Assembly (NCBI GenBank): GCA_003971905.1
Contig: RSEE01000117.1
Coordinates: 62,001-126,000, forward strand
DNA length: 64,000 nt
Source: Moniliella sp. 'wahieum'
Lineage: Eukaryota
Direction: 5' to 3'
Shown here: one piece after another, positions 10,501-59,400 of the stretch
Layout of the letters: every line of letters begins with the position of its first letter
How positions within the stretch are numbered: the stretch's first letter is position 1
Made by a program: the position numbers and the translations under genes
Notes under the pieces: generated by a model
What the model was told of the DNA's origin: nothing
What the model saw: only the letters and a program-made list of their open reading frames with translations
Database searches by the model: none

Positions 10501-13500
10501 CCAAGTCGTCGCTGGAGGTGGCACCGGCTGCTTCCACCCTTGCGCCAACCAACCGTCGCAGTTCGGCCGGGGATTTTTATCCTCGCTCAGTCCGGGGGGG
10601 GATAAAAAAATGCGCGCGCGTCAGAACGCCGCCAACGTAGCTGCCCAAGCCAATGGCCTAGGGACCAATGCTGCGGCTCCTGGCAGCCTAGGACCGGCCA
10701 GTGGCGCGTCATCCCTCTCACCTCCCACTAAGTCCCGAGGCCGGTCGCAGTCGCGTGGCTCCTTGCCCATCGGTCACAAGTTCAGCCTCGCGTCGTTGTC
10801 CCATGCTTTCCGATCTCCCTCCACGCAGGACACCGGGACAAGAACGGCGCAAGTTGGAGCAACAGCAAGCACAGCAACCGCCTGCCCCGGTCCCCGTCAT
10901 CCCGGCTGCCTTTTCCTCGCATGCTCCTACTTCAACGGCCCAACAAGGTAAACAGCGTCCCTCCCAATCCAGTAGCGGCGACGAGAAAGCCAAGGAGATG
11001 GACAAGTTGCAAGAGAAAGAGAAGATAAGGACAAAGACAAGGAGAGCAAGTCCTTTTCCTTCCGACGCGTTTCGCTCGCAGGGAGGGAGACGCCTCATGG
11101 TAAGGGACGCAGGCTATCGGTCTTGCCCATCAAGTTTTCGGGCAAGGGAAATGGCTCGGTTCTAAGTCCTCGTTCCGGCGAGTCTACCTTACCCCCTCTC
11201 CCTCCGCCTGCCTTCATACCTTCTCGGCCGCCCCAGGCTGCCTCGGAGTCTTCCTCTTCGGCCAATGCCCCAGGGGTAGCGACGTCCGGAGTGAGGTCGC
11301 AGGGGAAACCCAACCACCTTCTCACCACCTCTCGCTTCTGCCTCCACCCAAGGGGGGCAGCGAACATTTCCCTTGCTACTGACTATCATGAGCGACTTGC
11401 CGTGCCTGCTGTGCCTGCTGTGCCTGCTGCGCCAGCCGTTCCTGGTCCCTCCCAACCCGCGGCTCACCCTGGGCTTATTGCGTCGGCTTCTACCAGCTGG
11501 GCTAGTTCGATGGGTTCGACGACACTGGCTTCCCCATGGGACATGAGTGTGTCGCAAGAATCAAGTTTTGCATCTAGTGCCCTTGATCCACACCAACGGA
11601 GCCAGCTCCCGCGTTCGATCGTTCTGCCACGCCCAAATCGCGCCGAACACCCACGTTTTTACGTCGAGCGATGAAGCGGGCGAGCCAGGTGGATCCTGAG
11701 ACGACCCGCGAGCTGGACGCAGCACGCAATGGCGCCGTCACCCCGTCCTCCCGTACTGCCCGCATTCGGAACTTGTTCCCCTCAGGTTCCACGCGGTGGA
11801 GTACCTTGCCTTTCAACGTGTCCTCTCTCCCGCCTGCGCCTGCTACGGGAACGGAGCCGTTGGAAGGGGGCAAAGGCGAGCCGTGGACTTCATCTTCGTT
11901 CGCATCCACACCTGCGTCCCAAGGCCCCTTCCGCCGGGTTAGCCTTACCCGCAATCGATCCAACTCGCGCTCGCTCAAGTCTCCCCGACAACGGACTACC
12001 ACACTTCCGGGAACGGTCAAGCCCCCCAAGAACCTAGACCAGGCGGCACCACGACTCAGCGTGCATGTGCCTCCGCTCCCCGGGACGCATGGCAACATGA
12101 TCGACACAGTATGAATGGCGTAGGGAACTCTCCTCGTTTGGGTAAACTGCCTATCTCGACTTCTGAAGCGACAATGGCATTACCGTCTCCGAAGTTGCCT
12201 CGCTCTCCTTCGCTGGCTTTGCCCGGCGCTCCTTCCAGAGCGGAGGGATGGGCGCTGTCCCGCCTCATCGCCTGCCACGGAAACCAAATCGGGTCCTACA
12301 TTGGCTTGGCCCTCTTCCACTGCCCCCCCGCTTTCCTCCTACACTCCTCCCCGTATCCCACAAGTGAGCATCGAGACCCAGGTCCCGATTCCAAGGTGGC
12401 CGCCACCCATCCTGCTGCTGCTCCTGATTCGCGGCGCGTATCCATCCAAGCGCCCCCTCTTGCACCCGAAGCGACTTTGGTCTCCAGCCCTCCGCAGACG
12501 TATGGGACCAAACCTTCCTCCCCTCCTCCTCCTCGGAGCACGGGGGCAATTCAAGCGCCTGATCCGACCTCAGTCCCGCCCGACTTGCCTGTTACGGCTC
12601 TCTCTCCTCCCATCATATCCATTCTGAACGCATGTGCTAAGGCCTCTACGCCAGCAGAAACCGAGGCGGCGATGCTGCGGGTTCGGCACTTCCTTTCCCA
12701 CTCTACGGAGCCCCTGTCGGCCAACGAACAAGGCATCCTCCATGGACTGCTGATTCGCGAAGCAGAGATGAGTGGGAAGGAACCTGAGTTTGAGATGGCC
12801 AAGCCCATTGAAGATCCGCCACCCGCCTCGCAGCCCGCACCTTTGGCATCTACCCTCGACTTGCCCGCGGCCTCGGCTCCCGTGCCGAAACAGTTATCGT
12901 CATTATCAGCCAAGCCCGACGCTACGCTGGGCCAGAGCTCGCTGCAGGACAAACGAGTAAGTGCCCAGTCGCAAGCCACGGTGGTAGGCCGGTCGGGCAA
13001 GCCAGGCGATTCGGGTGGGTCTTCTGCGCCGGAGCTTGAGCCGCAGGACGCGTCCCTGGCTCGCACATCTATTTCTCCAAGCCATGTCCGGGCGCGCGAA
13101 ACGTCTTCTCGGCCGACGAGCGCGGAAGTGGCGCAGGACCACGAGGACGATCGGTTGATTGGGGACGAGGAGATGAAGACGTACATTGAGCGGTACCAAG
13201 CGCGGAAGTTATCGCAAGGTGTCAAACAAGCTGATTTGGATCGTCAGTTTGAGTTTCCCGATCCGGACAAACCCTCGCGCGAGTTTAGTGTGCGACAGGC
13301 CGAGGTTATGTTTGGCAACAGGCTGTGCGAGTACGAGCTCAAGGAGATGTACGATACGATGCGCGACAAGAAGATCTACTATGCCGGCACGACACGCAAG
13401 CACATTGCGTACTTGAAGCGACCCGAGTTCAACTATGGCTACGACGACGACCGAGGGGACTACAAGGTGGTGTTGCGGGACCACTTGGCGTACCGGTACG

Positions 13501-15443
13501 AGGTGGTGCAGACGTTAGGTCGCGGGTCGTTTGGCCAAGTGCTCAAGTGTAAAGATCACAAGACGGGCAAGTGGGTGGCCATCAAGCTCATTCGGAATAA
13601 GCAGCGGTTCCATCACCAAGCGCTGGTCGAGACGAAGATTTTGGAGCAGCTGGTGGAATGGGATCCGGAGGACAAGTACCACGTTGTGCACATGGTCGAA
13701 TCGTTTTACTTCCGCAACCACCTGTGCATCGCGATGGAACTGATGAGCATGAACTTGTACGAGTTGATCAAGTGCAACTCGTTTGCCGGTTGCTCCATCC
13801 GTCTCGTCCGTCGCTTCACCCTCCAGTCCCTCCGTGCCCTTATGCTCACCCAGAAGCATAGCGTGATCCACTGCGACCTCAAGCCCGAGAACATCCTGCT
13901 CGTCAACCCGCGCAAGTCGGAGATCAAGGTGATTGACTTTGGTTCGTCCTGCTTTCAGGACCAAAAGTGTACACCTACATTCAATCTCGCTTCTATCGCT
14001 CGCCTGAGGTCATCCTCGGCATCAGCTATGGCCTGGGTACGTTCGCTTTTGTTTTTACCTCTCCATTTTGGTGTTTGGTGTTTGGTGTTTTTCTTTTTTT
14101 TTTATCGTTTGGATTGCTGACCTTCCTTTTGCTTGGGCGCAGAGATCGACATGTGGAGTTTGGGCTGCATCCTAGCCGAGATGTATACGGGCTACCCACT
14201 CTTCCCTGGCGAAAACGAGCAAGAACAACTAGCGTGTATCATGGAGATCTTTGGTGTTCCACCCAAAGAGTTGGTGGACAAAGCCTCCCGTGCCTCGCTC
14301 TTCTTTGACGCCGAAGGCCGGCCGCACCTAGTCAACTCGAAGGGCAAGAAACGCAGGCCAGGAACCAAAACACTGCAACAATCCATGGCCAAATGCTCCG
14401 ACCACCTCTTCCTCAACTTTATTGCTCGCTGCCTCGAGTGGGACCCGGCCAAACGCCTCACGCCCACAGGCTCTCGAACACCCTTGGCTCACCCACGTCT
14501 ACCCGCGCTCCAGTTCCGCCAAACGCATCTCTAGCCGAAAAAAGACCCTCGCACCGGTTCCCGCCTCGGCCGTTTCGGCCCCGACTACTTCGGCCCCGGC
14601 TACTTCGGCCCCGGCTACTTCCCTCTCGGCCGCCCCCAGCCTCACATCCTTCCTCAACTCGACTCGATCCACCCCAGCACGGGCAGCTTCAGCCAAGGTG
14701 TACTGGGTTCGCTTGCTACTCATCCCTCCGGAACACTCTCCGGGACCCTTTCCGGGACACCCTCTGGGACAACCTCTGGGGCCCACACTATCAACCCGCA
14801 GGGACCTTTAGTCGAAGCACCTCCCCCCCTCTCGGGTGCGACAGTCCGTTGGATCCTGTAGGTACGGCCACAGGATCCAGGACCCTGCTGGACCCTACTT
14901 TGCCCTCCTTGCCTGCGGCGGCGGCACCTACGGGCTCGGCTCGGGCTCGGGCTCGGGGTCGGGATCGGGATCGGGTTCAGGTTCGGGATCGGGATCGGGA
15001 TCGGGCTCGGGCTCGGGATCGTCGGGGGCGGCTGCTGGTGCTGATGGTGCGGATGGGATGGATGGGCCGGGTGAGTCGGACACGTCTTTGGTCCCTACCG
15101 TGCCGTCGCTCCAGCCCGGTTGTTGGGCGACGACTTGGATGCGGTCATGGCGCTGCTCAAGAGTTTCCCCGAGCCTGGTGCGGACGCGTCGGACAAGGTG
15201 CCTGTGGAACCCCAAGGTCCCCAAGGTGCTTCAGGTTCCCAAGGTGCTCAAGGTGCCCAAGATGCGCAAGGTTCCCAAAGCGGTACCACCACTCTCGATT
15301 CTGCCTGGCCCACTCATCCCGCTCTCCCCCCTCATTCCGTTCACCCCCCTCACCCTCCTCATCCCGTTCTTCCCACTCTCCCCACTCCTGATCTCGCCCA
15401 CCCCACCAATACTTGTCCCGCTCCCGTTCTCACCCACCTCTGA
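7593..15443 (+). CDS. Class-2 DYRK dual-specificity protein kinase (Pom1/DYRK2-like) with a very long Ser/Pro-rich N-terminus; introns and frameshifts
   Basis: DH box YDDDRGDY, LGRGSFGQV, VAIK, HCDLKPENILL, DFGSS, activation loop YTYIQSRFYRSPEVILG, IDMWSLGCILAEMYTGYPLFPGENEQEQL; kinase domain ~13490-14480; intron ~14037-14142; start and stop approximate. Confidence 0.9.
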
Positions 15444-21218: not shown

Positions 21219-21949
21219 AAGTCTGCCTGAACCTCTTTTTTTCCGACCCATGCATGGACAGCAATGGTATATTCTTCTTCTGCTTCTCTGCCTATGCGCG
21301 GGCGATTTGGTACATGGGTCGGCGCGGCACCCCTCCCTGCTCGTGTGTTATGTCGGCCCCGTGGCCTGAAGAGTTGGGTCGTCAACGCGCCAGCCATGAT
21401 GTCCTGCTTTTGCAGACCAAAATGACTTTTGAACAAGGCAGTCTTTTGGGTGTTTGTATGCAGTTAGCAAAAGTAACGGTGTGCGACCGTTTTGCTAGAC
21501 ATATAGCACAGTCGAGGTGTTGCGGTGCACTAGGGATCGATAGTCCCAGTAAGGAGGTGCGTGCAGATCAGAAGGACTCTCAGATCTCAGATCTCATAGA
21601 GATAAAGTCTACCACGTTTGCTATCAAAACGCTAGGAACCCCCTACCCCCACCCTATCCACCTTCGAGGGCGGCGAAGAAGAGCGGCGGAATTAACGCGT
21701 AGCGGTAATGACATGTGGCATGTGACATGCATAGTGAGGGATGTGGCTTTTGAAATTTGAACCGCCTGATTACTAGAAAGAGCAGGATCAGATCGATCAT
21801 CGATCAAGTACCGAGGCCCTACCTAATCGAATCATCGGTAATCGATGTAAAGACTAGAAGACCACCGGCCTACGGCCCGGTCAGCTGGGGCTTCGCCCCA
21901 GCTTGATGCTTGGTGCACCGTCGCCATCTTAGCCCCGGGTCCGCCTTCG

Positions 21950-22058
21950 CCACCGTAGCCACCGGTCCACCGTTCCACGCTGGAGGGTGCTTGGTCGCCA
22001 CCTTAGCCACCGTTCCCCCGTCGCCACCGTAGCCACCGGTCCACCGTTCCACGCTGGA
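21950..22058. repeat. Direct duplication of a ~36-bp unit CCACCGTAGCCACCGGTCCACCGTTCCACGCTGGAG with internal CCACCG subrepeats
   Basis: Copies at ~21950-21985 and ~22024-22058. Confidence 0.8.
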
Positions 22059-22959
22059 GAGCGGAATAGTATTCACCCACTACGCCTCGGGTGGAATTTT
22101 ATCACCCATGTGCATCCGCCTGGCTGCGCCCGCCTGGAACGCGCCGGGTGAAACGTGCCAGGTGGCATGCTTGTGTAATTTTACGTAAAGTAAAAAGGGG
22201 GTCTGCGATATAAGAAGGGAGATACAAGTCGATCAAGTCTTGTAGCTTGAAGCTTGAAGCTACAAGCTGCGAGGTGCACCTTGCAAGCACTCGAAGCGCT
22301 GGTGGCCAGAGAATTGGGTTGCAGTCAAGCTTACAGTCTGCCTCAGAGGCCCGTGGGGAAGATACAGATAAGCGAGACGAGAAGCAAGCGTAACGCGTAA
22401 GTTGTTCCGCACGCGGTACCTGTGTGATGGATTGTCGCCCTATCAAGTTATAGATTTATCAATCATTGATGATGCATGATGCATTGCCGAATTATCGAGT
22501 GCGGAGCATCCTGTAGTCGGTTCGAATGAAATCTTTGGGCAGGTCCATAACCTTGCCATGCACCACGTGGCAGCAATGTGCGGATGTGGCTGCTGCTGTG
22601 GCAGGCTGTGGCCTGCTGCGCCTGGCCACCAGCTCGACCCTTCTGAGAGGGCCGGTGAATCGATGGAATCGAGCACTGAACGCACGGAATACATACCGCG
22701 CAGTGGGAATGGAACCCAAGGTTATGATCTGAGTCTGACATCGAGATCCAAATAATTAACCACAACTGAGACGCAGGCACCTATGCGCTGCGTACTGCGT
22801 GGCTGATTGCAGTCTAGTGCCTGCCCCGCTGCGTGAGCGCGCGCCCTGCTGGCGCGCTGGACTGCTGTGGTGTCCAGCTGTGTTTCCCAATGCCTCATCG
22901 GAAGATTTACGTACGATTCACCTTACCCACCCCCCCCAAAAGGGCGTGCTAGCAGCAGC

Positions 22960-25900
22960 AGGACCCCGGACATCACCCATTGCTCATCGGTGGAGGCACG
23001 TCCGTTCGTCAGGCCGATTTCACCCCTTTGCCCCACCTCGAGGGTGCAAACGAACGGGATGTGCCGATTTTGGCCGATTTTGGCCCAAATTTGCCCCTTG
23101 AACGGGATGAGCCTACCAGTAGGGTTAGAATTACATAAGACACTTGCCCCGTGCCGCACTTGCTTACGCAAGCACAAGAATTTAGGGTTCGGCTGGGGTG
23201 TCCCATCACGTCGCGTCGGGTGGTGCTGACTTAAGCGTGTTTTGGCCGCAACCATGTCTGCCTTTGCCTGCCTCTTCCCACGACGCGCCGAGCTCGAGAG
23301 CACTTCCAACGCGTCCCCCATGCTTCGCCGTGCAGCAGCGCAAGTGCTTTGCCTGCCTCCAAAGGTGCAACCATCCTGGCCACACGTGTTGGCGACAAGG
23401 CGTCGGATACAGTCCACTCTTCCCTTGATTTTCCTGTCATGGTCTGGGACGGTGTTTCTCGATGAGATGTACAAAGAGAACAGGCGGCACCTTCTCGGGC
23501 CTCCTTGACCGCGCGCCTTGTTCAAGCTTTTGGCCGTGACCCCGTGTCCGCTCTCTTGACTTCAAGCTGTCTTGGATGGATGTTCCAGGTCGGTGCACAA
23601 GGCAACTCAAGGCAAATGATGCCCTCAAAGAGGTCGTCACCCCTGGGCGAATGGTTCCAGACTGGCTTGTCCATATTGCTGCCGAGAGGTTGATCGACCA
23701 CTGGCGGACGGAACATCCGACCGAGCTTACGTCCTTCTTTTACATCCACAACGCGGGGTTCACCGAGGCGATGCAGCAGAATTTGGGAGTGGACCCCGGT
23801 TCTCTCGTGACGGCCGAAGAGGCACTCCAATTGCGCTCTTCCCTTGTTCGCATGCACGCAATCCCATCTGAGCGCCATGGCACACACTTTGCCATCGTCA
23901 ATATTACGGGCAAGTACTCAGACGATCCCCGTCGCGGGGGACTGCACTGGGTCCTTCTTGTCGTTGATGCGACCCACAGGCGGGTACAGCTGGCCAATTC
24001 CTTGCCTGTTTCGGTGCATGGGGCCATTGTTCCTTTGCTGTCGTCTTCCTGCAAACTGAAATCTGACTTATCCAGATCATGTCGAAAATTCATGGCCTCG
24101 CGCTCCACACGGTCGACATGGAGAATTATGGTCTGAGTCATAGGATGGACAAATATCCTGCTTCTGGCTACAACCACACCGTCTTTGACACTGCCGGGGT
24201 ATGTCTCGATATTCTCAAGACATTTCCATCGGCGATCAATATGGAGCACATTTGTGCCGACGCCGCCAATGCGGCACTGGTTCTGGCATCATGGGTGGGA
24301 ATGGGACTGACTCCTCATTCGGATCCTCAACCTGCACCAGCTGCACCTGTTCCCCTTCTCGAAGATGATGAGCCTTCCATCGTCCCCAACCACGACACTG
24401 TCTATGCCGCGATGCAACACTTTGTGGACCATCCTCAAGAGCCCTTCTCTCCCTGGGGAGAGGGCGATGCGGTACCCGCGACGTCTGACCCAGGTCCCGT
24501 ATCCGCCCACGATGGCACGGTGGATGAGGGAGATGAGGTGGTCTCCAAAACCAGGCTGCGACTGATGGCGTTGGTGGAGGCTCGAGAGCAATGCCTGTAT
24601 GTTTTATCTCACCCATATAGTACGCGACGACGGCCGCGATTCTAACAAACTCTGCAGCGAGAATTCTTCTGAGGTCAATGTTGACGCCGCTATCCAAGCC
24701 TCCCGCATGCGCATATCCAGCCTCCTGAACCCGGCCTCAAGCATGTCCCCTGTTATGGCTGTATCCAACCCGCCCCGATTGGACTCCAGTACGAACCTTG
24801 ACCGAAAGCTCTTTCTCTCCTTCAGGACGAAGGTTGAAGACAGCTTAAGCTCCCAGGCGGGGAAGAAATGGAATACTGCGGGTGATTGCGGTTTGGGCAA
24901 GACGTGTTCTGCCTTAAATGGATTGCACAAAAATGCGGAGGCGGCGTTGTACAGCAGTGTGCTGAAGGAGCTTCAAGATGGGCCTGGCGCTGTCATTTAT
25001 TCGGGGGCGGCCCGCAGGCTGCGATGGATGGGACAATCGAGACTCGAGCCCGTGACGGCTAACCAACAGGAGCGCCACGATCTTGTCGAGGAGGGTCGGG
25101 CGAAGAAGGCCAACGAGAAGCGGGTCAAGGCACTTTTCAACGTGGTAAAGAGGGTCAGCTTGTTGCCTTTGGACATTGCCAAGGGTGGTGTATTGCCGAT
25201 CACCCCCCTCACCATAGGGGATCTGGTCGTCTTCCTGTCCCTCGACAAAACAGAGGTGACACCCACCGTTCAGATCGGCCATGGCAAGTCCATAACACTC
25301 ACCATTTGTTCTTATTGCTGCTAACATTCGTATTCGAAGTGGTGAGCATGTACACACAGGCGTCGAAAACTGTACCCCACAGCTGGGTGAACAATTGGTC
25401 GAACTTATCTACGCTCTCGTACATCTCGCTTCGCTGCCTGAAAGAAGGGACCCAGCCCACGTACACGTCCAACATGAAGTGGTCACTCAACACGAGGCGT
25501 TACTACCATGTGCCAGCTTTTCAGGTCCTGCGACGTTTACCAGGCGAGCATGTCTTCAAGCAGGCCAAGAGCGACGATTATACTAATTACACTGTGCAGC
25601 TTTCTCCCCAGGCAGCCGCGATGTTCGCCATGGTGGAGAAGGAGCACTTTCTCACGCCCTTGCTGGTGGGGAAGTAGTCGCAGAGAATACCAATGGCTTT
25701 ACATGCAGTGCCGCCTGCTATATAGAAGCACCTGTTGCGTATCAATCAGAGCAGGAGCTTGGGATTTGGAGATGAAGTCTGGAGGGTGGGCCCACCTCTC
25801 AGTTTGAGGGCGTAGGTTAATTACCAAAGTTGGTACTAGCCAGTGGATGCTATTGTGCTATCGTCACTGCATGTTGCGCGAGGTTGCGCGCTACTGCGTT

Positions 25901-26208
25901 TCGAATATTTCATGTTGTGCCGCTTTGTAAGCCTGTGCCACCCAGGCCACCCCGCCAAACCCGATCACAACACACGTGGCCGGTTGAAACTTTGGCAAAA
26001 AAATTACCTAAGATCCGGATTTTGGGGGATTCATCTACCATTTTGCACCCCTGAACGGGATGTGCCACCCTTTTTTGCCCATTTTAGCCCCTAAATTTTG
26101 CACCCCCAACGGGATGTGCCGGCACTTTTTTGGCCCTGCGGGGCCCAAATTTGCACCCCGAACGGGACGTGCCTCCACCGATGAGCAATGGGTGATGTCC
26201 GGGGTCCT
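22960..26208. mobile_element. 3.25-kb TIR DNA transposon (apparently non-autonomous) with 8-bp target site duplication
   Basis: TIR AGGACCCCGGACATCACCCATTGCTCATCGGTGGAGGCACGTCC at 22960-23003 is the exact reverse complement of 26165-26208; GCAGCAGC flanks both ends (22952-22959, 26209-26216); subterminal GAACGGGA(T/C)G(T/A)GCC repeats. Confidence 0.9.
23254..25677 (+). CDS. Transposon-encoded multi-exon protein: Ulp1/NEDP1-like (C48) protease-fold domain plus an uncharacterised C-terminal region
   Basis: FAIVNITG...GGLHWVLLVVDATHRRVQLANSL; in-frame introns 24014(or 24029)-24075, 24597-24657 and GC-AG 25284-25339 join ORFs 23576, 24079, 24599 and 25306; 5' part frameshifted. Confidence 0.65.
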
Positions 26209-26709
26209 GCAGCAGCTGCAAAGTGCCCGAGGGGCGAGTGCCGAGGGACTGCATCTTGGTCAGGCCCCGTGCGAGGCTTCCCGGAGTGTGTCCCTGTGCG
26301 GCGGAAGGAGGGTGGAATTGCCCGTGATACGGGGGTGCAAGGCGTGCGCCACAATCACTTCGGTGGCAGGTGGCGTTTTGTTTTCTTTGTTCTGTCGCAC
26401 AGATCCAGCGCATCATGCATCATCACCATCATCACCATCATCATCATCCATCCAGCTATCAAGCTATCATTATATCATTCACGTTCAGTCCCCCTAGCCT
26501 AGCAGTAGCTTGCCCGGCGACGGACGCACAAGTCGCAGCCACTGGCGGCTAGTCTCTTCGCTAGCCAGCTAGTCAGCGCGCTGCGCCACTCAGCCGCTCA
26601 GCGTCCGTTTTCATGCATCATGCATCATGGTTGAACCTCCCCCAGATCTGGCCTCGACCAGCAATGGCAACACGCGCGCCTCCTGACCACCCCACCACCA
26701 CCTTCCGGT

Positions 26710-28262
26710 ATGAGCGTCATACCTCATCATCCCATCGCCGTTGCTGGCCCCAGCGCCAGCTTTGTACGGCATGATGTCTTTCTGCTCATGCTGGACTACA
26801 ACATATACGCCTCTGCCTTGCTGGGCATTGTCGCCTGGGATTATCTTGTGACCCTCAAGGATGAGATCAACATGTACCGCCATCGCGGTCCCAAACTCAT
26901 CTTGATCCCCTTCTTGACCGCTCGCTACGGCACCCTCGCCGCCGTAGTGACCAACCTAGTTCAGCTTCGCAATGGCCTGTGGCTCTCTCCCCGCGAATGC
27001 TACAACACCGCAGCATTGTCTTCCTCGGCATCATTATTACTGCAGCCACAAGCGCCATCTTTGTCCTGCGCACCTACGTCATCTGGCATCGGTCCAACTG
27101 GGTCCTGGGCGTGCTTTCCTTGTTGTGGGCGGCTCAGTTGGCTGGTACGCTAGCTGTCGGCAACGGGATCCGGCCTGCGGTGGTACCAGAGGAAGACAAT
27201 ATGTGCATGATGCTGATGCCACACCGCCACATCTCATGGGTCATTTATGCAGTGAACATGATCTTCGACGCGCTCATTCTTATCTTGGCCCTCGCCGCGT
27301 TGTTGAACCCGTTCAACCCCATGATGAACAGCCACGCCGGCAGTTCCGACAATGGTGCCTTGCCTAGTCCTCAGCCTCATCGCAAACGATCCTCAACCAT
27401 TCTGGTTCGGTGGATGGGTGCGTTCCGACCGTCGCTCCAGATGCATCGAATCCAAGCTAGGTTTTTATCGGAAGGGTTTGTCTTCTTTTTTTGCGCCCTG
27501 CTGGTCAACTTGATCAACACATTATTCCTCACCGTCGGCGGTTCTTGGGCTTACGCCAATATCAACACTACCGCTGCCATCGCAGTCACTGGCATCTGTG
27601 CTGGCCGAACTGTTCTGATCAAGCTCGCCGTTGATATTCCCACGCGAAAGTCGTCTATCACCCCACCCTGGCCTTCGTCCCAAGCCACTGGTGTCTCCAA
27701 CCCCGATGCCGACATGCCACACTCCCACCACTTCCCCCCAGTCCAAATTGAAACCGTCACGACGCAGACGGCCGACCAGCTCGATGGATATGAAGCCAAG
27801 CTTGGCTCCCCCCTGCCTTCAAGTGGATTGAATTCGAAACTCACACCCCTCTCGGTTGTTGATGCTTCCGATTGGGCTGTGGAGGACACTGGCAGCATCC
27901 ACTCCACTGGCGAAGGAATCCCGAATTACCCCCGCTTGCGGGGCGGATACCGTGTCCCCTCTCTCAACTCAGTGCATGCTGCAATGGCGAATGGAACGTT
28001 GGGCTTTTCGCATTCGCGAGAGGATCTGGGATCACCCCCTGCGGGCGGAGAACAGGACCATCCTCTCTCTTCCCCTTCCCAACCCAATACGCATACCCCC
28101 ACTCCGCCCTCCAGCAGTCCCACCCACGATGTCCATCCCCCCGAGCGTCCGACAGGAGCGGCTGCTCTCACCACGCAGCTTTTCTCTCCGCTTGACTTTA
28201 CCCCATCAAAACCGAGCGAAGATGTAGAAGTGCTACGCGACCCTTTACGCCAAAGCAGTTGA
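26710..28262 (+). CDS. DUF6533-type fungal multi-pass membrane protein with disordered C-terminal tail
   Basis: ASALLGIVAWDYLVTLKDEINMYR N-terminal signature, RYG, LRTYVIW, several TM-length hydrophobic segments; one frameshift near 27010. Confidence 0.75.
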
Positions 28263-32820: not shown

Positions 32821-33830
32821 ATTCCATTGACAGAGCTTAAGGCTGGGACAGGGGAACGCTACGTCTAAACCGAACCGTTCATCTTGCGGGGGTTACTTGG
32901 AAGCGCCACCAAGATTAAGGGACCAGGGGGATCGCCAGGATATCAGGACCCTCCGGCTCACGCCATCCGGTCCCGTACCCTAGGAAGCGCGTGTGGACAC
33001 GGAGGAACGTGGTTGACATACGAGCGAGGAACCATTTCCACTGAGACTTAGTAGCCAACTCCTTCCAATGCGCAAACAACTTGCCCGCCGTCTTGGTGCC
33101 GTAGTATCCTCGCGTCGTCAAAACCAGGGGGAAAAACGGTTCTTGAGTGCGTCCCTGGTACTTGGCGTTCTTGTCGCATTCTGCTTGTTCAAGCAGCCGA
33201 AGCAGTTCCTTCTCCCGGCGTTCCAAAGGCGACGCAGTGCTCTCATGCACCACCCGCCGGTACGCGCTCTGCGCCTCCTGCGATCCCGTGTCGCGCAGCG
33301 TGTGGTCTACCTCCATTCCGGTTCCTCCCAGTGCTCCGGGCCCCATCACGCGGTAATCGGTGCGCTGTGCCTTCCGTCCGCGCCTCGTCCCATCCTCTTC
33401 CTCCACCATAGGTTCGTTGTGGACGTGGGTGTCGGGGATGGAGCGGAGGAGCTGGAGAATGGGCTCCCGCACTGCCTCATGCAACGCACCAAACTTGGCC
33501 TGGGTGCGGGTGCAGGACATGATATGTTCCAGCGAGGACATGATGCCGCACTTGCACATGCTGCGCGTGGTGCGGCACAGCGTGCGGAGCTGGAGACCAA
33601 CCTGGACCTGCTGGTCAGAGAGCTTGAGGTACGGGACGGATGGAATGGCGGAGAGCCAGTTGTGGCTCAGCGGGTTGCTGTGCTCAACCACATGGCGACC
33701 ATCGGCAGCGTCCAGCTTCTGGAGCAGCTCCTGTCGACTTTGCTCCCACATCTCGCGGCAGCGCTGGCGTTGCTTCGTAAATGCGTTGGCCCTTGCCGTT
33801 TGCGGTCCCGAACGGCCTGTTTTCATATGT
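32821..33830 (-). mobile_element. 5'-truncated RLE-type non-LTR retrotransposon (CRE/Cnl1/MoTeR-like), C-terminal zinc knuckle + endonuclease + 3' UTR
   Basis: ORF 32915-33826: WLSAIPS...LSD...GLQLRTL, CKCG-x6-H-x3-C knuckle, HEAVR, EP, RTD...VD...KNAKY, FFPLVLTTRG; no RT domain present. Confidence 0.85.
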
Positions 33831-33867: not shown

Positions 33868-34422
33868 GCTCAACGCACTGACTACCGCATGATGGGACCT
33901 GGAGCAATCGGAGGATTAGGAATGGAGGTGAACCACACTCTGCGCAACTCGGGAACGCAGGAGGCGCAGACCGCGTACCGGAAGGTGGTACATGAGAGCA
34001 CCGAGCCGCCTTTGGAACGCCGGGAGAAGGAGCTGCTCTGGCTGCTGGTACAAGCAGAATGCGACAAGAACGCCAAGTACCAGGGACGCACCCAAGAACC
34101 ATTTTCCCCCTTGGTTTTGACGACGCGAGGATACTATGCCACCAAGACAACGGGAAAGATGTTTGGGAACTGGAAGGATTCGACTACTGACTCTCAATGG
34201 AGATGGTTCACCGCTTGGATGTCTATACCACGTTCATCTGTATCCACAAGTGCTTCCTCGGGTATGGGAACGGATGGCGGGCACGAGAGGGTTTTGATCT
34301 CCTGGCGATTCTCTTGGTTCCTTAAGCGGAGTTGGCGCTCACAAGCAGCACACGCCGGATGAACAGGTCAGTTTAGGCGCAGCGTTTCTTTCTCCCACAG
34401 CCTTAAGCTCTGTCAATGGTAT
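33868..34422 (+). mobile_element. Second, shorter and degenerate copy of the same RLE retrotransposon family, opposite orientation
   Basis: AQRTDYRMMGPGAIGGLGMEVNHT...AECDKNAKYQGRTQEPFSPLVLTTRGYY; shares the 3' end CAGCCTTAAGCTCTGTCAATGG (34398-34419) with the left copy (32824-32845, reverse strand). Confidence 0.85.
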
Positions 34423-53808: not shown

Positions 53809-54540
53809 TTAGTGATTTGTGCCCTCCTAGCCACCTGACCACTTTGGTCATGGGCAAACGTTGTGGACCCCCCTCGTTTCTCTTCAACGTACCTTTTATT
53901 GTATCAAGGAAATGTGCGCAGTCAATAGGGCTGTAGAAGTGTGTGCGAAAGGCTAGAACGGCTCAATATTCAATGGTTTCGAAGCCGAGACGGAGGTTTT
54001 GACATGCGCAAATCCATCTCCCGATCAGCCCCTCGTGACTGCATAGCTAATCGAAAATGCCGGTAACAAGGTTCCGGATAGATATGTGAGGATGCGTACG
54101 AAATTCAAGGTGGGCAAGGCCCACAAGATTGTGCACCAGAAATTTCGATTAGCCATGTGCTGTTCCTCATCCTTATTTCCGATGTCGAGTCACTCTCCTC
54201 GTTTCTGTGGCGTTCCGGTACCTCCCAGACATCGGCTCTGGGATTGGGGTTGTGGGGGGGGCTTGTCTTGACCCTCCTTGGTTTCAGCTAGATTCAGGTG
54301 AGCTTGGGCGTGACCTCCTCCTTCTCTGTTTCCATCTCCTGATCATAAACATCCATGAGGCTCTGTCGTTTCCTCAGGTGCTGGCGCCGCGCGGGCTCTG
54401 CTCCACGCCGGGACAGAGCCCGCGCCGGGACGCCAATCCACATATTGGCTGAATATGGTGGGCGCTTGCGACTGGAGCCTTCAAGTCGTCCACGTCTTGA
54501 CTTACAGCTGTCGCAGCAGGAAGCACCACTGTCTTGAATC

Positions 54541-54578
54541 AAGCTTCAAGCTTCAAGCTTCAAGCTTCAAGCTTCAAG
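54541..54578. repeat. (AAGCTTC)5 heptamer repeat
   Basis: Five perfect copies; related arrays at 58082-58107, 22244-22261, 16041-16056 and ~32411-32427. Confidence 0.95.
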
Positions 54579-55835
54579 GCGCTTTTAGGATTGCTTGTTA
54601 CAGGAACAGCGGACGAAAGTTCATTGTCACACGGGGCATCGCCACCTCCCTGTAGCTACGGCCTGCTACGGCTCTCGATCGACCAGCCACTGAAGATGGC
54701 CTGCCGTTGATCCGCTGTTTTCCTGCAGTGACGAATACGCGTTAGTTGCATGCTAGGTTCCAACCACTTAACCGCACGTTTTTGGCTGGTTTGAGACGGC
54801 TGGCGAAGCACGACCAGGTGCTCCCGTATGCTCCCGGAAGCGTTCGAAGGCCAGGCAGGTATGGGAGGGGAATGGGGAAGGGCAAGGGCAGAAAGGAGTA
54901 GTATGCAACGCAATAAGATCGAACCGGGCATTGAATATTGAATCTTGAATCTTGACCCTAGAAGGCGCTGGACGCTGGGGGGTCGATGCTCCGGATGATT
55001 GTACGTCACGCCTGTTGTCACATGTTCTTCGATCTTCTGTGGCCCTGCTGCCTCAGCCTGATGGCCTTGGACGCCTTGAAGCTTCAAGAGTTACTCACTA
55101 GTCACTAAGCTAGTCACATGTCGTCGCGACTGTAGTCGTTGTTCAAATTTGTGTGTTCAACGGAGTTCAACATTCCTAGGTTCAACACGTTCAACGTCAA
55201 CATTCAACGTAAACCATAGTCCCCATCAGGCGAATCAGGTTGACTGGTGTGAGGAACTCAAGTTGGGAGCGGCAGCGTGGCCAGGACACTTAGATTGTCC
55301 AATGAACTTCTGTCGAGGACGGGTTCGCCGTGTTCATCGTTCGTCCAAGGTTCCACCAACCCATTATAGCCAACACTCGTTCTACCCATTCGTTCTCACA
55401 TTCGCGCAGCATTAGGCGGAAGAATCGACTTGATCGATCGGTCCCTGAAGACGATGGACTACGCTACTACTGCCTCTTCCTCGACCGCAGAGCTCAGCTG
55501 AGCAAACATTGAGGAGCGGGATCGAATCAGCGACCCCGAGATACGTCCGTATTTACATTAGCGCATTAGCACCCAACTGCATGCGAGGCGAAGGCGTATT
55601 AGGCCTTAGGCCAAAGAGTATTCAAGGCGTTCAAAGACAAGTTGCAGTGAAGGCGCATGTACATTTGAACCTACAAAAACCCCAGCGGGGGAAAAAGAAA
55701 CAAGATCGTCATAGCGGCGAAGAACGACAATAGGGGAAGGAAGCCGTACCGCAGATCGCAGAGCAATGCCGTGGTGCAGGTGGTATCGAAGCGCTGATAT
55801 ACGCAGGGCAGACGGGAGCCGGGCTCATGCACGGC

Positions 55836-56414: not shown

Positions 56415-59400
56415 TGCAGAGGAAATAAGAAAGTAAGGGCGAGTAGAAGAAGCGGAAGTGGCAAAGGTTAGGTGGTGGGGGGGGTACGACAGGAGAAAGA
56501 GAGAGAAAGGCCGCAAGTAGTGCGTTGCCGGGCAACCTACTTATATCACCGCGGCCTGGGGAGGGGCGGCAGGGCGACAGGCCAGTGACGGCAGGCGGGC
56601 AGTGTAGGATTCGATGAGACCTCACATTCCCCGTCAATGCCGTCAGTACACTGGGTTAGCGCCGAGCTCAAAAGAGCACTCGCGGCCGGCGCGCACGCAT
56701 GTTGCACTACCCCCGTGCCGGGTACTAGTCCGGTCTCGGCCGCAGTGGCCTGCCGCCCTTGCCCGAGTGCAAGTCCGCGGGGAATGCGCAGCCTTGCACT
56801 GCCCCCGTGCGTCGCTGAACTCTATGCGTTGGGGAGGCAGGTCGCGCGGGCAGCTCAGCGCCACTGTCGGATGTGTTGCCGCCGTCGGTGGCGGCACATG
56901 CTCGCACTTTTGTTCGCTTATTTTTTTTTTTAGCTGGAGGCACCCCGGGCACCCAAGCGGTGTGGGCATGGGGCGTGCTGCAGCCACACAAGCCAGCGGG
57001 AGCTCCTGCTGAGGGCTGAGCTGCTCAGGCGCTGTGCCGGATGTTGCGGCGCGCAGGCACTGAGGCACTGTGCGCTAATGCGAATCGCTGGGGCGGGCTC
57101 GCACATGGCGCTGTGGGCCATTGGGGGCCATGCGCCGTGTGACAATGTGACGCAACCTGACCGCCGATCATTTTTTCTGTCAGCCAACTAATATAAACGC
57201 GTAACGCGTCACTGCGTAGCTGCAACGCCTGACGCCTGACACTGACCCCAACGCCGGGGGGCGGCAGCCGCGTCCCGAGAAGAGTAAGCACGGGTGGACA
57301 TTGCATGGACCGGATGCAGGTTGCAGCACAGCACTACCACCGGTCCCATCCCTTCCTTCTGAATCTGACGCGCCGTGTCATGCACGTCGGGCCCTCAGGT
57401 AATGCGTAAGATTAGAGTTACTAATGGCTGTGGCCCTAGCGATGACCACCTTCTGGCGCCTGTTACATGTTATTTCCAGCCTCTTGGCCCTTGAGCTCGA
57501 CCGGTGACCGAGACGCGTAAGTAACTCGGGGTGGTACTGGTACTCTGACTCAGTACTACTGAGTAACTGAGTACTCAGACTGAGTACTGAATAAGGAATG
57601 CTGAGTTGCTGATGATCGTCAACGGGCCCTTCAATTGGGGTCAGCGTGTCAGCGAGTTCGGCCACCCAAGCATCATGTGCATGCACCTGCATGCACTCGG
57701 AAGAGAGTCTCAGCGTAACACATCCATCACAACCACTAGGCGTACGTACTTATCATCGATGTTCGACGTTCGGCATCCATCTCAGATCTCAGATCCCTCA
57801 GATCCCCCAGATCCCCCAGATCCCCCAGATCCCCACAGGCTCAGACCTCCGAGATCGCTCAGGTCTCTTCTCAGAATTCATCGGTCATCAACATCGTCGC
57901 AACCACGCTGCGTTTCGCGTTCTAGACACCACTTTATGTTGAACTTGAACTTGAACTTGAACGTTGAGTTGACGTTGATTATTGATCGGCCTTTCGCAGC
58001 GGTCGCAGTCTCTCGTGATCTGACGGATCTGACGGAGCCAACACCTCAGTATGCATGAACCTGTTCAGCGCTTCGACATTCAAGCTTCAAGCTTCAAGCT
58101 TCAAGCTCCCTCCGGCTTCCGCTTGCGGGAAAATCAACCTCCCATTCGCGTTGCATCGAACGAACGGCTGGCTGGGCCGAAGACAGAAGACAGTTCGATG
58201 TCGAACGCTGTCATCGCAGCAACGTGTACGATGCTCGATCGCGCGCAGAACAACATCGAATCATCCATCGCAGTGCCGTCAGGTGTACCATCATGCATCT
58301 GGCATCAGATAAATCAGTGTTCAACTTGAACGTTCACTGAACGTTACTAGTTAGTTACTCGCGTTACTTGTGAACGTGTGAACGTGACCCATGTGAACCT
58401 CCATCTGCCCCAAGCCTGCCCCAACCAACCATTTCACGTCAGCATCACGTCATCATGCACAGGCATCATGCATCATGAGCTCATGCATCATGTGTACGCA
58501 CACATGGACACTTTCAACTTTGAAGGCATTTGAAATGTTTAGGCACTACCCTCGGGCCTCAGGCTGAGGCCCCATCGGCCTCTCCTGCCCCAATAACGAA
58601 TCCCACCAACCCGACGAGATGCTTGCAAAAAAAGCAGTCCGAAGCGAGGCTCCGCAGATTGTGGAGGGTATACAAAGCCACCACACCACATATCCCTCCT
58701 TCATTCACACGTTTCATGAGCGAAGGATCTGACCACCATGACAGAGCCCCTCGGCATCTTATTATCGAGTCCATTATATGTAGCCTTTTGGAAGGACATT
58801 TGCAAACTAACTTACGCACAGAAGGATCATATAAGTAGAGTAGGAAACGCTTTTTGTGTCGGCATGACGACGGATGAGAAGTCTGAAGGTCGCTCATCCG
58901 TCGGCGTTCGTGCTGACAGCTCGAAGAGCCCCGAGTCCACATTCTACGGGAGAGTCGTTATATATTAGCAGGTGAGAAAGGGCTCTCCCTCTGCCTCCCA
59001 GTATTCGTTTCCAAACCAGATGAACTATATACGGGGGTGGATGTGAACGAGCATGATGGATGTGTGAGGTATGGGAACCATCCCCAATATTCTCTTCAGC
59101 TCTCTTTCTTTCCAATAATCGAAATGATCCACATCTTCTTAGCATCAGTCTTGTTCTTGGCATAATGTGGTGGCATGCTTGCGTCGTAATGACGACAAGG
59201 GGAAAGAACGGAAAATGGGCGGATCCCGGATGCTTTGCGTTCTTCTTGCAATCAGCCTACTCGAGTAGCCACATGCAGCTCCTTCTCTCGAGGTTCCATA
59301 ATAGTGAATTCTCCTAAGACCTCGTTTACCGCCTTACGGGAATGCCCCGTAGCCACATGCGAAACTGAACCCTCAAAAGGTGTGTTGGGCCATCTCCATC

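Follow-up and report, generated by a model that had tools for sequence, protein, structure and literature searches.

A putative class II terminal-inverted-repeat element of unclassified family with an orphan, possibly C48-like gene in Moniliella sp. 'wahieum'

Element anatomy and target site

A stretch of 64,000 nucleotides of Moniliella sp. 'wahieum' (contig RSEE01000117.1 of assembly GCA_003971905.1, positions 62,001 to 126,000 of the forward strand; hereafter the window, in whose numbering all positions are given) was analysed around an element of 3,249 bp (22960-26208). The element is bounded by a pair of terminal inverted repeats (TIRs), flanked on both sides by the 8-mer GCAGCAGC and occupied by a single predicted gene (Table 1). 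Its size was confirmed as an observation on the DNA by repeat finding and sequence inspection. This is the anatomy of a TIR insertion with a target-site duplication (TSD) and an intact resident gene, and it is well beyond chance.

The TIR 44-mer, which reads AGGACCCCGG...GGCACGTCC at the left end and is present as its exact reverse complement at the right end, was matched exactly twice in the whole window, with 0 mismatches, in a pattern search for which 0.00 matches were expected. The chance level was taken from 100 dinucleotide-preserving shuffles of the window, none of which contained the 44-mer. The perfect 44-bp repeats described in an initial annotation of this DNA were thus borne out (44/44 identical). 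When the element was compared with the window by blastn, the arms lengthened to 49 of 50 aligned columns, with a 1-base gap in a CC/CCC run as the sole difference, and the left match reached ~23008 with this one 1-nt gap. A 24-mer of the TIR had 0 exact matches in the metagenome contigs searched, and a 16-base stretch of it had no match in the open-access full-text literature.

At its inner end, the left TIR is formed by an inverted, 1-nt-shorter copy of a 14-mer, GAACGGGATGTGCC, which is reiterated in the subterminal regions. Allowing up to two mismatches, this 14-mer was matched six times in the window, against 0.59 expected and with 0 of 100 shuffles reaching six. Five of the six matches lie in the two ends of the element, all of them direct and on the plus strand (starting at 23052, 23100, 26053, 26107 and 26160). 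At the right end the 14-mer forms part of a ~55-nt unit, the last copy of which continues into the right TIR. Asymmetrically oriented, reiterated subterminal motifs are the typical look of transposase-binding sites in many TIR families.

The 8-bp duplication on both flanks, for which 6- or 4-bp alternatives had also been proposed, was likewise recovered, and the boundaries can be read in three ways: as AGG..CCT with a TSD of 8 bp, as CAGG..CCTG with one of 6 bp (CAGCAG), or as GCAGG..CCTGC with one of 4 bp (AGCA). The two shorter readings are possible because the two bases just outside each TIR (both GC) are mutually complementary; all three predict one identical empty site, ...GTGCTAGCAGCAGCTGCAAAG.... 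The insertion hit a short tract of (GCA)n, and GCAGCAGC is over-represented in the window, where 14 copies were counted over the two strands against 4.67 expected. Nine of these are on the plus strand, which corresponds to a frequency of ~1.4e-4 per plus-strand position. Since there are only nine such copies in 64 kb, an identical 8-mer at the exact boundary would arise by chance with a probability of ~1e-4. A third copy of the 8-mer, inside the 5' non-coding part of the element (23332-23339), is probably coincidental because the 8-mer is so common in the window.

Structure of the resident gene

A single plus-strand gene was predicted at 23576-25677, with four exons and a product of 624-637 aa, depending on the splice model. 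The predicted protein has an isoelectric point of 6.5 and an acidic, proline-rich stretch at approximately residues 230-310. In-frame GT..AG solutions were found for all three introns; intron 2 is the clear case, with textbook fungal splice signals, and introns 1 and 3 have alternatives. Codon usage was scored with a log-odds table trained on three host open reading frames (ORFs) of the window. All four exons showed host-like usage, with the highest log-odds in the stated frame and z values of 3.7 to 6.0, and the score was equalled in 0 of 2000 shuffles per exon. The splice solutions and the codon scores together bear out the one internal gene with three in-frame introns of the initial annotation.

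Two alternative exons were tried and rejected. An upstream ORF at 23254-23505 had a codon score of ~0 as a first exon, and its donor at 23365 (phase 0) clashes by eye with the acceptor at 23588, which needs phase 1. A last exon in the frame ending at ~25586 scored -0.097, whereas the frame that closes at 25677 reached +0.214.

Table 1. Features of the element and its target site, with positions in the window.
Feature	Position	Strand	Description
Left copy of putative 8-bp TSD GCAGCAGC	22952-22959	.	Identical to 26209-26216
Left TIR	22960-23003	+	44 bp, perfect; repeat finder, pattern search, blastn
Left subterminal region	23052-23113	+	Direct 14-mers: 23052-23065 exact, 23100-23113 with 1 mismatch
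GCCGATTTTG mini-array, x2.3	23063-23085	+	In left subterminal region
Exon 1	23576-24007	+	ATG at 23576; 144 aa; alternative end 24013; HWVLLVVD...N motif
Intron 1	24008-24075	+	68 nt; alternative donor 24014 gives 62 nt; CTGAC branch-like site, CAG acceptor
Exon 2	24076-24596	+	~174 codons; presumed second half of N-terminal domain, then acidic, proline-rich linker
Intron 2	24597-24657	+	61 nt; GTATGT...CTAAC...CAG
Exon 3	24658-25287	+	~210 codons; end uncertain, alternatives 25255 or 25267
Intron 3	25288-25346	+	One of at least 3 in-frame solutions (also 25256-25359, 25268-25359); CTAAC branch site ~25319-25323
Exon 4	25347-25677	+	TAG stop 25675-25677; frame backed by codon score
Right subterminal array	26040-26173	+	2.5 copies of ~55-nt unit (TTTGCACCCC + 14-mer)
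Right TIR	26165-26208	-	44 bp, perfect; repeat finder, pattern search, blastn
Right copy of putative 8-bp TSD GCAGCAGC	26209-26216	.	Identical to 22952-22959

Sequence and fold searches with the resident protein

Pfam was searched with 16 exon or ORF translations of the element (the exons and further ORFs of 120 aa or more from both strands, in two scans), none of which reached a curated cut-off. Below threshold there was only noise, namely US22 (E 0.2), a ZNF462 finger (E 0.02-0.04) and Hint_2 (E 0.2-0.3). No hAT, Mutator-like element (MULE), KDZ, P, PIF, Tc1 or integrase domain was found in these translations, and at E values up to 10 none of the zinc-finger, helix-turn-helix, DDE/RNase H or other nuclease families appeared. 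As far as Pfam sees, the absence of a visible DDE transposase stated in the initial annotation therefore holds.

The gene also behaved as an orphan in sequence searches. Exon 3, the largest exon (209 aa), returned 0 matches at E <= 0.001 in a phmmer search of 1.84 billion representative proteins, and of 214 stretches of metagenome contigs that fitted its peptide pattern, 0 were confirmed by tblastn. Word-indexed searches yielded for exon 1 849 candidates among longer proteins and 34 among proteins of similar length, and for exon 4 72 candidates among longer proteins, none of which scored. In sequence searches of the PDB, residues 1-90 of exon 2 and exon 4 each had 0 matches, and exon 3 matched only an OmpA-family protein (E 1.2). 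The C-terminal ~320 residues received no assignment from any search made; the model of the C-terminal half consists of long helices and a small strand region, but its confidence is too low for this to carry weight.

The one positive lead came from a language-model look-alike search with exon 1 (Atlas), in which the nearest clusters were Ulp1/Peptidase_C48 (PF02902), with scores of 0.93 and 0.92. The two top clusters had 171 and 174 of 256 features in common with the query, 23 of 30 matches belonged to the C48 family set, and the recognition value was 2654; by the tool's own calibration, such a result is a good lead that falls short of proof. When exon 1 and residues 1-90 of exon 2 were submitted to complex prediction as two domain halves, no answer was returned (score 0.00), which speaks neither for nor against the assignment.

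The C48 motif, which we take to be a His-Asp-Cys triad plus an oxyanion Gln arranged as HW...D...Q....DCG, was then sought by eye. Exon 1 contains PDWL...L and then LHWVLLVVD with His124, followed 17 residues on by Asn141 at the position expected for Asp. In exon 2, GYNHTVFDTAGVC (NHTVFDTAGVC) stands where Q....DCG is expected; there is no DCG, and a Cys follows four residues further on. Judged from these residues, the canonical nucleophile position of C48 appears not to be conserved, and the catalytic site of the putative Ulp1/C48-like N-terminal domain may be degenerate. The N-terminal ~220 residues probably adopt a clan-CE fold.

Genomic surroundings

The window is ordinary DNA, rich in GC (50-65%) and densely packed with genes that are short and spliced; Pfam recognised a protein kinase, HEAT repeats and an MFS transporter among them. 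A target within a coding region was rejected: when the flanks were joined, no gene-like ORF spanned the reconstructed empty site. The next ATG-initiated ORF starts at 26997 on the plus strand and encodes 421 aa, which by eye resemble a membrane protein and match no Pfam family; on the left side, the closest gene-like ORFs terminate near 21 kb. From the lack of a gene-like ORF across the insertion point and the positions of these neighbours, the element is placed in intergenic DNA, ~0.8 kb upstream of the ORF at 26997.

Inverted repeats of at least 28 nt with both arms at one locus were found in the window only at the element and at 33-34 kb; the remaining pairs of this length are microsatellite-like (28-32 nt) or scattered matches. 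The 33-34 kb repeat is 356 nt long (33015-33370 / 33868-34223), 85% complementary, with 497 nt between its arms, and overlaps ORFs of 303 aa (minus strand) and 273 aa (plus strand), both without a Pfam family. By eye, the 303-aa ORF (…WLSAIPSVPYLKLSD…CKCG…EH..SC) resembles the C-terminal part of a retroelement protein, and the repeat may be a remnant of another, older mobile element. A 74-nt tandem duplication of 88% identity lies at 21912-22059, ~0.9 kb to the left of the insertion, and microsatellite-like CTTGAAG/GCTTCAAG tracts occur at 22238-22287, 54529-54592 and 58070-58119.

The kinase is a DYRK-type protein kinase ORF at 12111-14120 (Pkinase, E 1.7e-28). It shifts frame by 1 nt at 13950-13975, between ...DFGSSCFQDQK and VYTYIQSRFYRSPEVILG, inside the catalytic domain, where an intron would not fit. 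Either the assembly is wrong by 1 nt here or a conserved kinase carries a true frameshift. In view of this frame change, the assembly may carry indel errors, so that single-base details may be artefacts.

Comparison with known systems

Published systems were compared with the element by description. By behaviour, the closest is T1 of Cryptococcus deneoformans, a 2.7-kb element with 11-bp TIRs, no ORF of DDE/DDD type and a 258-aa coiled-coil ORF without known function. T1 has five full copies, inserts between genes, is mobile and was thought possibly to be non-autonomous (PMC9942834). Both are small fungal TIR elements with one ORF and no DDE, located between genes; they differ in the 44-bp TIRs of the present element and in its spliced gene for ~630 aa with a possible C48-like domain. 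As T1 has already been described, mobility of a fungal TIR element in which no transposase is visible is not a new phenomenon (PMC9942834).

Mutator and Ginger1 elements are known to include Ulp1 domains (PMC2836005). The plant Ulp1 MULEs (Kaonashi/KIU, VANDAL) resemble the present element, with its possibly C48-like protein, in that they are DNA transposons with an Ulp1-like protein as a non-transposase gene (PMC13317346, PMC2836005). KIU and VANC of the Arabidopsis VANDAL MULEs are sequence-specific anti-silencing proteins that bind short motifs in the non-coding DNA of their own family, and some proteins of the VANC/KIU type carry a transduplicated Ulp1 domain (PMC13317346); such recognition provides a plausible model for the 14-mer arrays described above. 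The plant MULEs differ in being non-TIR elements whose three genes include one for a MURA-type transposase, and in having an Ulp1 domain that matches pfam02902 (PMC13317346, PMC2836005). In contrast, the present element has clear TIRs and a single gene, for which Pfam gave no C48 match, and its translations contain no Pfam match to the MULE transposase domain, with or without a SWIM finger.

An 8-bp TSD is found in hAT elements (5-7 bp in hAT5/6/7) and in Zisupton/Dileera (PMC12730594), as well as in the KDZ elements of Cryptococcus (bioRxiv 10.1101/2024.08.15.608186, 10.1101/2025.05.19.654958). Fungal KDZ (Zisupton/Dileera/Kyakuja) and hAT elements have TIRs like the present element and agree with the 8-bp reading of its TSD, and fungal members carry accessory genes whose function is epigenetic or not known. 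KDZ elements differ in their size of 6-11 kb, in TIRs of 139-241 bp in Cryptococcus, and in their KDZ and CxC domains (PMC12730594, bioRxiv 10.1101/2024.08.15.608186, 10.1101/2025.05.19.654958). Neither the KDZ transposase domain (PF18758) nor the CxC zinc-chelating domain had a Pfam match in the element translations, and no part of a hAT transposase (BED finger, catalytic core, C-terminal dimerisation domain) was found by Pfam at E values up to 10. The element was not filed under hAT or KDZ/Zisupton because these defining transposase domains are absent; an 8-bp reading of the TSD would be compatible with both. We describe it as a class II TIR element, so far unclassified, whose orphan gene may be C48-like.

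Ginger1 elements are similar in having TIRs of 40-270 bp, spliced genes and an Ulp1 domain, which the putative C48-like domain would match; they differ in the place of that domain, on the C-terminal side of a Gypsy-type integrase, in a TSD of CCGG/CCGT and in TGTNR termini (PMC2836005). None of these was found in the present element. Polintons combine an Ulp1-like protease with TIRs but are 15-20 kb long, and nothing else of theirs is present (PMC4405056). In the portions of the open-access full-text literature that were searched, we found no fungal TIR element with an Ulp1-like protein as its sole gene.

Interpretation and alternatives

With a probability of about 55%, we consider the element to be a true TIR transposon of class II (cut-and-paste type), inserted in intergenic DNA and of unclassified family, which moved in trans and whose protein is an accessory factor. 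A transposase would recognise the TIRs together with the reiterated 14-mers and excise the element, and a staggered cut at the target, once filled in, would generate the GCAGCAGC duplication. The enzyme would most likely come in trans from a longer related element at another genomic site, in which case the present copy would be non-autonomous; trans-mobilisation is the simplest reading because no ORF of the element resembles a known transposase. The resident protein would comprise the Ulp1/C48-like (clan CE) N-terminal domain, then the acidic linker and then the C-terminal half. It may have been retained as an accessory factor, for example as a counter-silencing or SUMO-pathway factor or as a binder of the 14-mers. 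Such a role is proposed purely by analogy, with VANC/KIU of the plant VANDAL MULEs and with the TET/JBP genes of fungal DNA transposons as models; fungal and oomycete DNA transposons carry TET/JBP, SET and other epigenetic accessory genes (PMC12730594).

Several observations weigh against this interpretation. An intact ORF over 65% of a perfect-ended element would be expected of an autonomous element rather than of a deletion derivative, and no further copy or fragment of the element and no related protein was found in the window by blastn and tblastn. Possible indels in the assembly may affect intron 3 and the 1-nt gap in the extended TIR. As regards the protein, neither exon 1 nor exon 2 matched PF02902 at Pfam E values up to 10; the Pfam and fold tests were performed on separate exons and the putative C48 domain is split by intron 1, so that a weak match of the whole domain is still possible. 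The sequence search of the PDB with exon 1 returned only coatomer delta (E 0.4) and nothing related. The single-sequence AlphaFold2 model of exon 1 had a mean predicted local distance difference test (pLDDT) score of 45.2, too poor for comparison, and that of exon 3, mostly helical and of low confidence, one of 35.2. A Foldseek comparison, which had been suggested as a check in the initial annotation, was run on the exon 1 model against the PDB and gave 0 matches at E <= 0.001, with unrelated top rows. Finally, any protease activity is doubtful because the DCG motif is absent as such (FDTAGVC in exon 2).

These results modify two points of the initial annotation. The protease fold has the language-model lead to C48 (0.93) in its favour and the lack of a Pfam match on the separate exons against it, and it stands as a weakly supported interpretation. 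The view that identical TIRs imply recent movement is weak, as 88 TIR bases would stay identical at ~1% divergence; the uninterrupted reading frame of ~1.9 kb is a better sign of youth or selection. As a whole, that interpretation was reasonable and is partly supported, with the protease fold as a lead and non-autonomy and expression as inferences.

The main alternative, though a rather unlikely one, is that the element is autonomous and that its transposase is none other than the ~630-aa orphan protein, either a strongly diverged member of a known superfamily or one of a new superfamily, which would bind the 14-mers and the TIRs and catalyse both excision and integration. It would account for a single intact ORF over 2.1 of 3.25 kb between perfect TIRs, and the protein has neither relatives nor a Pfam family, so that nothing gives it another function; moreover, Cryptococcus T1 is mobile even without a recognised transposase (PMC9942834). 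Against this, Pfam at E values up to 10 revealed no zinc finger, helix-turn-helix, DDE/RNase H or other nuclease family, and the sole positive lead points to the fold of a cysteine protease, which transposases are not known to adopt. In the stricter version, the element would need no transposase other than the orphan protein, which would represent an undescribed eukaryotic superfamily of the cut-and-paste type, be built around or fused to a clan-CE-like domain and recognise GAACGGGATGTGCC; this appears decidedly improbable.

It is very improbable that the locus is no transposon at all, but a host gene between the arms of an inverted duplication with GCAGCAGC as a pre-existing microsatellite on its flanks. 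The (GCA)n target, the single copy within the window and the over-representation of the 8-mer (14 against 4.67) would agree with this. However, the perfect 44-bp inverted arms stop exactly at the duplicated 8-mers, both ends carry reiterated subterminal motifs typical of transposase-binding sites, exon 3 found no relative among host-type proteins by phmmer, and, besides the element, the 85% pair at 33-34 kb is the only same-locus inverted repeat of at least 28 nt.

Least credible is a reduced derivative of a Ginger1 or Polinton/Maverick-type family (clan-CE protease plus integrase-type transposase) from which the integrase part was deleted: Ulp1 fused to Ginger1 transposases with TIRs of 40-270 bp (PMC2836005), TIRs with an Ulp1-like protease in Polintons (PMC4405056) and the possible 4-bp TSD speak for it, but the Ginger1 TSD is CCGG/CCGT with TGTNR termini (PMC2836005) where this element has AGCA and GCAGG, Pfam found no integrase remnant in any ORF, and the protease assignment is itself tentative.

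The existence of further copies and of an empty site would make the element a young, possibly active fungal DNA transposon family whose only gene is without relatives in a library of 1.84 billion proteins. One outcome would then be an as yet unrecognised autonomous partner, together with an accessory protein kept under selection by a non-autonomous element, which would bear on how transposons evade host silencing, as do the VANC/KIU and TET/JBP cargo genes. The other would be a type of transposase that is missed by current profiles, which is the same question as for Cryptococcus T1.

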